A stretch of 56,941 bases of DNA, counting the filler, from Basidiobolus ranarum (Eukaryota): NCBI GenBank assembly GCA_040143965.1. It is 3 parts of 3 records of this genome, joined end to end, with 100 filler letters (N's around TTAATTAATTAA, not from the genome) between each part and the next. Parts side by side here need not be neighbours in the genome. Positions count along the whole stretch, not along the records: positions 38,082 to 56,941 come from JASJQH010007141.1; 2 more parts are not named here. One strand, given 5' to 3'. The notes under the pieces are model-generated. The model made no database searches. It was not told where the DNA came from and saw nothing but the letters and a program-made list of their open reading frames with translations. This document shows, piece after piece, positions 52,563 to 54,522 of the stretch. Numbering within the stretch: the stretch's first letter is position 1; each line of letters starts with the position of its first letter. The position numbers were made by a program, and so were the translations under genes.

Positions 52563-54522
52563 ATGAATAAGATTCCAACAAAGTTTTACGATAAGATAAA
52601 ATACTTCGCCACCTTCCCTCAAACAGGTGTGTCACTTCGACAGATGGTGGAGTTTGGTCAGTAGTTTTGTTTACAAAATGAGAACACCATGCGTTACTAA
52701 AATTGGCCCGTAAGCTAATGGTTTTTAATAGGCCAGAAACCTTCACAAGGAACTCTCTTAAGAGCTAGTCAATTTTTGATGGGTATGTTTTTTTATCAAG
52801 ATCTGCTGCAACCTTTTATATACTAACAACATAAAACTATTGAAGAGGAACTTCCCATCCGTCTTGCTCATCGTGTTGTTGAACTTGAGAACCTCCCTCA
52901 TGGTCTTAGTTTAATGCCTTCAGTTATAAAGGTCAAAAATTGGTATGCCGATTCATTCCATGTAAGTCAATTTCCACTATATTCTTTATGGTTAATTGAA
53001 AAATAACACTCTGAATTTCAAGGATTTGACAAGTTTCCCTAGACCAGAATTACCGCAGGATGTAAAAAACAAATTAAAGGCTACTCTACGCCCTAATGGT
53101 CATGCGATTGAATTACCCAACTCCTCCAAGAATCCGGATGTTGAAAACGGAAAAAATTCTGTCCCCTTACCCCACAGGTATCTAGTCATTTATTAAAAGT
53201 AAATCCACCTGAATACTTCTAACTTCACCGCAATAATACAGATATTATACCTCAGTGGAGGATATTGAATTTCCTCCCGAAATCGTGGAATACAATGATG
53301 CTTTTTGTCGTCTTATTGAAGGTGTTAAAAGAAGACATGATCCTGTTGTAACGACAATTGTAAGTCTTAACTACTGATGAGCCCAATTCATCCCAGTCTA
53401 ACTGCTTATTTCCTCACAGGGTACGTATTGTCGTATAAAGATGCCGTGATATAGGAATCCATTTTAAAACCACAATATTATCATAAGCAAACGGTATTTT
53501 GGAGTTTAAGAATACACGTAGATCTGGCCATGACGATATCGACGTACAATCTTTTTTGGATCGCTTCTACATGTCACGCATTGGAATTCGTATGCTAATA
53601 GGTAAGTAGTATTATGGGCTTGAAATTTATCCAAGCAATGAAAGGCTAAAGTAGTAAATGCAAAGGGCAACATATTGCGCTTCAAAAGGGACCACACAAC
53701 TCCGACCATGTTGGCATTATATGTACGAAAACAAATCTAGCTGAAGTCACGCAAGAAGCCATTGATAATGCCAAATTTATCTGTGAGGACTACTATGGTT
53801 TGTTTAGGGCACCTGAAGTGAAGCTTATTTGTCAAGATGATTTGGAGTTTATGTATGTTCCAAGTCACTTGCATCACATGCTGTTTGAGTTATTGAAGAA
53901 CAGCTTGAGAGCTGTAGTGGAAACCTATGGACCCGACCCCGATGATGCTTACCCACCTATCAAGATTATTGTTGCAGAAGGAAAAGAGGTTTGAAGTACT
54001 TGCATTTTTTGCACCAATGTTCCTAATTGACAACTCTATTCTAAAAAAGGATATTACCATCAAAGTGTCAGATGAAGGTGGTGGTATTCCCCGAAGTGGT
54101 TTACCTAGAGTTTGGACTTACATGTGAGCTCTAATACGAACATCGGTATTACGCAATCTCTTCTTACGAGTCTCTATTTATAGGTACACCACGGCTTCAA
54201 CTCCTTCTTTGGATCCAGATTTCAACCGCAGTGATTTTAAGGCCCCGCTCGCTGGGTTTGGATATGGATTACCATTGAGTCGTTTGGTAGGATAGTGTCT
54301 TTCTTAACAAGCAAAGGAATAACCAATTAACTGTACGTTCTCATTGATAGTATGCCAGATACTTTGGTGGTGATTTGAAGATAATCTCTATGGAAGGGTA
54401 ATTCTAAGTGCATTGCTATTTCCGGGAGATAGACTAATCTTTATTGGATTTTGAATAGATATGGAACTGATGCCTATCTTCATCTATCCCGTCTTAGTGA
54501 TAGTGAGGAGCCTCTGCCCTAA
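52563..54522 (+). CDS. PDK: Pyruvate dehydrogenase kinase (mitochondrial GHKL kinase), 12 exons including a 1-nt exon
   Basis: FPQTGVSLRQMVEFG, EELPIRLAHRV, FLDRFYMSRIGIRMLIGQH, LFELLKNSLRA, ISDEGGG-like [35 protein letters not shown]. Confidence 0.96.
53420..53420 (+). other. Predicted single-nucleotide exon (G) of PDK
   Basis: cacag|G|gtacgt lies between two canonical introns (53360-53419 and 53421-53487) and is required for the reading frame. Confidence 0.82.

Follow-up and report, generated by a model that had tools for sequence, protein, structure and literature searches.

A probable one-nucleotide exon in the gene for a pyruvate dehydrogenase kinase of the fungus Basidiobolus ranarum

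A 56,941-nt stretch of DNA from Basidiobolus ranarum (assembly GCA_040143965.1), referred to below as the window, contains a gene for pyruvate dehydrogenase kinase (PDK). The question raised by this locus is how two of the exons of that gene are joined in frame. The upstream exon ends with the codons ...ACG ACA ATT, the final base of which is at position 53359, and it is separated from the downstream exon by two GT..AG introns, of 60 and 67 nt, with a lone G at 53420 between them. It is argued here that the gene probably encodes the conserved kinase only if this G is retained as an exon in its own right. The features on which the argument depends are as follows.

52563 to 54522, + strand: coding part of the PDK gene, with 12 exons and 11 introns when the one-nucleotide exon is counted; 419 codons plus stop.
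53242 to 53359, + strand: exon 5, ending ...RRHDPVVTTI (ATT) in phase 0; positions 61–101 of the Pfam domain BCDHK_Adom3.
53360 to 53419, + strand: intron 5, 60 nt, GTAAGT...CACAG; no similar copy elsewhere in the window.
53398 to 53402, + strand: branch-site motif (CTAAC) in intron 5, its branch A lying 18 nt before the end of the intron; a pyrimidine-rich stretch follows.
53420, + strand: candidate one-nucleotide exon G, the first base of the codon GCA (Ala179).
53421 to 53487, + strand: intron 6, 67 nt, GTACGT...CATAAG; phase 1, within the Ala codon.
53488 to 53601, + strand: exon 7, starting CA AAC GGT (..NGILEFK...FLDRFYMSRIGIRMLIG); BCDHK_Adom3 positions 102–135.

These boundaries were read by coordinates, and the positions and letters given for 53360–53487 in an earlier, sequence-only reading of the window proved to be exact, letter for letter, as did its description of two canonical introns, of 60 and 67 nt, around one G. 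It is apparent that the lone base is preceded by an intron ending in AG and followed by one starting with GT, that each of these introns is complete with a donor and an acceptor of its own, and that the base is needed if the frame is to be carried across the junction with the conserved Ala179 in place. Intron 5 has the strongest splice signals of all the introns in the gene, and of the two introns around the G it alone has a clear branch motif.

The public protein that is 100% identical to the largest exon is KAK9717452.1 (P0001), a B. ranarum entry with the annotation [pyruvate dehydrogenase] kinase isozyme 2; it is the public model of this very locus and is therefore not independent evidence. 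The domains PF10436 (BCDHK_Adom3) and PF02518 (HATPase_c) were detected in it with scores of 143.8 and 52.3 bits, and in a protein of Basidiobolus meristosporus (P0121) with scores of 188.3 and 51.4 bits. Both proteins thus possess the N-terminal four-helix-bundle domain and the GHKL ATPase domain of the mitochondrial PDK/BCKDK kinases. Besides P0001, three further Basidiobolus PDKs were found, namely a B. ranarum paralogue, KAK9722353.1 (P0002), and the B. meristosporus proteins P0121 and P0003; the two B. meristosporus records are ORY06955.1 and ORY03089.1. In the phylogenetic tree P0002 and P0003 are sisters (100/97), and the PDK duplication therefore predates the split between B. ranarum and B. 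meristosporus.

To determine which splice patterns are compatible with the flanking exons, all solutions with GT/GC-AG introns of at least 35 nt and an open frame between two flanking anchors were enumerated. There were 18 frame-keeping solutions with one intron and 257 with two, 275 in total. Both flanking motifs were retained in only 6 of the 275, and a single solution, the 60+1+67 arrangement, yielded the junction TTIANG. The exon was described as obligatory in the sequence-only reading; that description holds for the conserved protein, since TTIANG is unique to 60+1+67, but not for the reading frame, which 275 solutions leave open. When AT-AC introns were also allowed, 44 one-intron and 261 two-intron solutions were obtained; the AT-AC solutions were rejected, as they delete conserved residues and lack a U12 donor.

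The junction was also examined with the Pfam BCDHK_Adom3 profile, with the acceptor's own G (53487) substituted in the query for the missing first base. The upstream exon matched positions 61–101 and the frame starting at 53487 matched positions 102–135. The profile runs from 101 to 102 without a gap, and therefore exactly one codon (xCA) bridges the exons. Candidate products were then scored against a hidden Markov model (HMM) constructed from 77 non-Basidiobolus PDKs of 380–470 aa (among proteins P0004–P0120), with the following results.

One-nucleotide exon model: 748.3 bits (best).
Donor GTCTTA (TTIVTNG): 742.2 bits.
10-nt exon: 740.4 bits.
Public 13-nt exon: 738.6 bits.
Downstream acceptor 53504: 726.1 bits.
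Downstream acceptor 53510: 720.5 bits.
Skipped form (214 aa): 241.9 bits.

The acceptors at 53504 and 53510 were rejected, as they remove ANGILE(FK) and score 22–28 bits below the one-nucleotide model. The motif could be located in 63 of the 77 homologues (14 were unmatched), and the junction residue was Ala in 63 of 63; fungal PDKs elsewhere have TT[IMVL]-A-[QN]G at this position. The match to the PDK pattern that had been noted when the G is included (TTI-A-NGILEFK) is supported by a 419-aa collinear protein with Ala at the junction and the best profile score. The loss of frame on skipping was also correctly foreseen, the skipped product stopping after 214 aa.

A comparison with the relatives gave a similar picture. 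The 419-aa model that includes the G is equal in length to both B. meristosporus proteins, and the alignments are ungapped, with 385 of 419 residues identical to P0121 (92%) and 369 of 419 identical to P0003. The sequence TTIANGILEFK is present in both. Taken together, the enumeration, the profile scores and this collinearity argue that the conserved protein is probably encoded only with G 53420 retained.

The public gene models of B. ranarum depart from the conserved sequence at this junction. KAK9717452.1 appears to be wrong at two places, in that five residues, GTYCP, replace Ala179 and 47 N-terminal residues are missing. Its junction reads TTI-GTYCP-NGILEFK, and is produced by the 60-nt intron followed by a 13-nt exon that begins with G 53420 and ends at a weak GTATAA donor. 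As regards the N-terminus (window 52563–52782), the public protein (376 aa) starts at a Met inside exon 2. Two upstream exons, 52563–52656 and 52732–52782, encode 47 more residues, which align collinearly with the paralogue and with the two B. meristosporus proteins; the public N-terminus therefore looks truncated.

The paralogue KAK9722353.1 has nine residues inserted at the same junction, around TTIVSYRYVSASNG, where it reads TTI-VSYRYVSAS-NGILEFK. Its model, too, appears to be wrong there. The predictor may thus have been faced with exons that are out of phase in the paralogue as well, and the residues TTI-VS... are those expected if ATT directly precedes GTAAGT in that gene also.

It was of interest to determine whether the sizes of the two introns are typical. 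The PDK introns are, in order, 75, 63, 61, 64, 60, 67, 64, 61, 60, 64 and 61 nt in length, all within 60–75 nt. In the window as a whole, strong donors followed by a branch motif and acceptor at a distance of 50–69 nt numbered 19, as against 5.2 in shuffled sequences, whereas at 100–139 nt there were 3, as against 7.6. On the basis of this peak and of the PDK intron lengths, a 60+67 arrangement is typical and a single intron of 124–128 nt is atypical. The composite signal at the junction (a CTAAC-type branch and YAG, a single base, then a strong donor) was encountered at just one of 113,882 window positions, namely 53420. Its expectation in shuffles is 0.17 per window, or approximately 2e-4 for one given 128-nt interval.

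A second composite was observed at 23085 (window 23040–23100, + strand), where a branch motif and YAG are followed by 3 nt and GTGAGT. It was rejected as a 3-nt exon and is regarded as a chance look-alike, since it lies inside a continuous open reading frame (ORF) of 282 codons, 22643–23491, that encodes a Glyco_hydro_47 domain (E value 2.5e-74). The window consists of three contigs, of 18,954, 18,927 and 18,860 nt, separated by artificial spacers (N44-TTAATTAATTAA-N44) at 18955–19054 and 37982–38081. The PDK gene is on the last contig (38082–56941), and features before 38082 are therefore unlinked to it.

The history of the two introns was investigated in a metagenome scan in which P0003 was used as the query. 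The scan returned 80 PDK loci, the best of them with 66–80% identity; the junction was recognised by its motif in 28 and not in the other 52, and there was no Basidiobolus DNA among the 80. In the 28 informative loci the site was intronless in 12 and carried a single canonical phase-1 intron in 16. This intron, of 37–229 nt, lies in the Ala codon (...G|GT...AG|CN). The position and phase of intron 6 (G|GTACGT...AAG|CA) are identical to those of the single intron in these loci. A counterpart of intron 5 was absent from 16 of the 16 intron-bearing loci, and intron 5 is therefore likely to be a later addition. Intron 6 thus occupies an old phase-1 position common to other fungi, and intron 5 is likely the extra element.

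Two of the intron-bearing loci (L028 and L064) are nearest to Mortierella-type proteins, and others are nearest to early ascomycete proteins, with 48–70% identity. Introns of only 37–39 nt were observed at the conserved Ala-codon site in L032, L034, L068, L069 and L071–L076, for which the nearest proteins, at 48–70%, are those of early-diverging ascomycetes. In an AT-rich locus (L050:869–1186) the phase-1 intron at this site measures 144 nt, and FLDRFY is preceded by an Asn/Pro-rich insertion. The proteins closest to this locus are the PDKs of Basidiobolus, with 58–59% identity, and it may represent a distant relative.

A number of observations weigh against a one-nucleotide exon. Intron 6 lacks a clear CTRAY branch motif, and its 3′ end is AAG. 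The composite pattern was defined after the site had been seen, and composites with gaps of 0–15 nt show no overall enrichment in the window (2 observed, approximately 3.1 expected), so that the statistical argument is positional only. The gene makes use of several weak donors (GTTTGA, GTAATT, GTAGGA and GTATCT), and a weak signal is therefore not in itself sufficient reason to reject the alternative donors GTCTTA and GTATAA. The models of the B. meristosporus proteins are equally compatible with an ordinary intron, ATT G|GT, in those genes. Finally, a protein collection searched for transcript-derived fragments spanning the junction gave 161 matches, the best with 63% identity, and none was from Basidiobolus. 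Exon-level ORFs from other Basidiobolus assemblies, in which the bases after ATT were sought, gave no candidates, and a scan of genome contigs with a degenerate HDPVVTTI pattern gave 4 matches, all of them chance matches in bacterial contigs.

Several other explanations must be weighed against these data. An error in the sequence or assembly would restore ATT G|GTAAGT and a single canonical phase-1 intron of 128 nt, with the internal CAG-G-GTACGT a coincidence. One lost G would account for the frame problem, since the ancestral intron in other fungi has precisely this form (...G|GT...AG|CN); both B. meristosporus models read TTIANG, as an ordinary intron would give, and the contig that carries the gene is only 18,860 nt long and belongs to a fragmented draft. 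Such an error is nevertheless considered quite unlikely. It would require that a perfect CTAAC..CACAG|G|GTACGT had arisen within the intron by coincidence, for which the expectation is the approximately 2e-4 given above, and an intron double the size of the other nine and outside the 50–69-nt peak. Moreover, the other 1,259 coding bases contain no frame defect, and the read-through V-S in the paralogue model would fit the same ATT-GTAAGT on a second contig. No more credence can be given to the proposal that the main product is one of three other canonical forms, listed here.

53420 to 53432: 13-nt exon, donor GTATAA, junction TTIGTYCPNG.
10-nt exon: donor GTCGTA, junction TTIGTYSNG.
Single 124-nt intron: weak donor GTCTTA at 53364, junction TTIVTNG.

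All three retain the frame and both flanking motifs, weak donors are in use elsewhere in the gene, and the 13-nt exon is the choice of the public annotation. They score 6–10 bits below the one-nucleotide model on the PDK profile, however, replace the Ala that is seen in all 63 homologues with a located motif, and alter the length relative to both B. meristosporus proteins; their donors are without G at +5 and would compete with the consensus GTAAGT and GTACGT a few bases away. The same mRNA could also arise from one non-canonical intron, either GT..AA (53360–53486) or TA..AG (53361–53487), with the G of the mRNA contributed by 53487 or 53360, respectively. These one-step routes and the two-intron route give identical mRNA, so that ordinary RNA-seq is unable to separate the three, and the TA..AG variant would coincide exactly with the phase-1 position of the ancestral intron. 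Among U2 introns, however, termini of the GT-AA or TA-AG kind are extremely rare, and a non-canonical intron would offer no explanation for the canonical sites within it or for the normal size of both parts; this route is regarded as highly improbable. U12-type introns are characterized by a donor like RTATCCTT and a branch like TCCTTAAC close to the 3′ end. The donors at 53360–53487 are GTAAGTCT and GTACGTAT, and neither a U12 donor nor a U12 branch consensus is visible in the interval. U12-type splicing was considered because minor introns are abundant in B. meristosporus (PMC10639083). It is very unlikely, lastly, that the gene is a defective or down-tuned copy in which the donor at 53360 is mostly joined to the acceptor at 53487, giving the frameshifted 214-aa product and probably nonsense-mediated decay (NMD), while the paralogue carries the function. 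The paralogue P0002 does exist, skipping would produce a premature stop in exon 7 with five more junctions downstream, and plant lineages with and without the one-nucleotide exon of VPS55 are described in PMC8831610. Against this, the gene is otherwise undamaged throughout its 419 codons, with 92% identity to the relative, and the nearby 3′ site of intron 5 should win under intron definition, since the signals of that intron are the strongest in the gene. The regulated skipping proposed in the sequence-only reading belongs under this explanation; no support was obtained for it, for the NMD switch or for the ordered two-step splicing of that reading.

The explanation that is held with good, although not full, confidence is therefore a constitutive one-nucleotide exon, G 53420, between canonical U2-type GT-AG introns of 60 and 67 nt. 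Each intron would probably be recognized separately, through the intron definition that is customary for fungal introns of this length. Their removal would probably be sequential, because the 5′ site of intron 6 follows the branch and 3′ site of intron 5 too closely for joint occupancy. The resulting mRNA, ATT-G-CA, would encode Ile-Ala and restore the conserved ...VVTTIANGILEFK... helix of the N-terminal domain of the kinase.

Two routes to this arrangement may be envisaged. A new intron may have been inserted one base upstream of the old donor, in which case the G would be a remnant of the end of the old exon. Alternatively, the G at the old donor may have been lost and an internal AG-G-GT then adopted, a route of the kind proposed by Nelson and Syed for Fusarium (PMC12940212). 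Neither intron has a copy elsewhere in the 57-kb window, and introns 5 and 6 are not similar to one another (global score 0.5, compared to a shuffle mean of 1.15 with an sd of 3.06). The similarity search within the window neither supports nor excludes an origin from an introner or by tandem duplication. A more far-reaching scenario, thought unlikely as a whole, is that an intron of standard size landed one base upstream of the ancient intron before the Basidiobolus PDK duplication. All four PDK genes of both sequenced species would then carry the exon, and the weak intron 6 would make inclusion of the G tunable, with skipping (frameshift and NMD) setting the level of PDK and the activity of pyruvate dehydrogenase.

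One-nucleotide exons have precedents. The closest is found in the CYP621A P450 genes of Fusarium, in which an AG-G-GT arrangement with a combined length greater than twice the median intron is verified by RNA (SRA reads) and conserved in approximately 20 orthologues (Nelson & Syed 2026, PMC12940212). As in the Basidiobolus PDK gene, the host is a fungal gene, the core is AG-G-GT and the G supplies the missing base of a codon in a conserved motif; public predictors miss the exon, and it was deduced from the phase mismatch of its neighbours and from collinear relatives. The Fusarium host, however, is an ascomycete P450 and the G is the middle base of a Gly codon, whereas here the host is a zoopagomycote PDK and the G is the first base of an Ala codon. 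The Fusarium exon has orthologue conservation and SRA reads behind it, in contrast to the candidate PDK exon, which is read from one genome sequence. A further difference is that the downstream intron of the PDK gene is tied to an old and widely shared position.

In plants, a one-nucleotide exon was reported in APC11 of Arabidopsis (Guo & Liu 2015, PMC4674806), and those of APC11 and VPS55 are described as conserved and verified by reverse transcription PCR (RT-PCR) (Yu et al. 2022, PMC8831610). As in the PDK gene, a single base lies between two canonical introns. The plant exons are flanked by longer introns and were proven with GFP fusions and RT-PCR, whereas the PDK exon is read from DNA; that of VPS55 is alternatively used in some plant lineages. 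Such exons are routinely absent from plant annotations and are not mapped by aligners unless annotated, and that of APC11 is constitutive (PMC4674806, PMC8831610). A long-read annotation of Coprinopsis cinerea contains 13 one-nucleotide exons (PMC12230235). This basidiomycete is an intron-rich fungus with short introns; its one-nucleotide exons are recurrent, their omission breaks gene models, and they were detected genome-wide from full-length transcripts. The characterization of one-nucleotide exons as very rare in the sequence-only reading is still fair, but they are now documented in fungi (PMC12940212, PMC12230235).

A relation to stwintrons had also been suggested, and is loose. In a stwintron one of the signals of an outer intron (donor, branch or acceptor) is split by an inner intron, so that the outer intron becomes functional only after the first excision, and those of the [D1,2]/[A2,3] type are described as underlying 1-nt intron shifts (Fekete et al. 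2017, PMC5587772). The PDK site resembles these in having two short fungal introns in direct contact, probably removed by consecutive reactions, and in its bearing on one-base shifts in intron position. It differs from them in that both introns are complete in the primary transcript, neither interrupting a signal of the other, and an exon base stays between them. The interval 53360–53487 contains neither a G-[GT..AG]-T nor an A-[GT..AG]-G arrangement, and with every splice signal uninterrupted the site falls outside the definition of a stwintron.

Recursive splicing makes use of AG|GT ratchet points in long animal introns, a zero-length exon that allows removal in two steps. Ratchet points likewise juxtapose a 3′ and a 5′ splice site within what appears to be a single interval, but nothing of them remains in the mRNA and the introns in which they act are very long, whereas here one base is kept and the parts are of approximately 60 nt.

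A search of the literature on one-base exons and stwintrons revealed no case in Basidiobolus or in a PDK gene, although supplementary exon lists, such as that for Coprinopsis, might hold one. One-base exons are already known from Arabidopsis, Fusarium and Coprinopsis, and the Basidiobolus PDK gene is probably a further case. If real, it would be the first, among the literature cases found, to come from an early-diverging (zoopagomycote) fungus and to affect a core metabolic regulator. It would also have a readable history, in which an element was added one base away from an old shared intron, and could thus serve as a test case for whether ultra-short exons originate from a new intron beside an old one or from a base loss rescued via a cryptic AG-G-GT. 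Together with the Fusarium, plant and Coprinopsis exons, it adds to the case for the explicit handling of exons of 1–3 nt in annotation pipelines and aligners.

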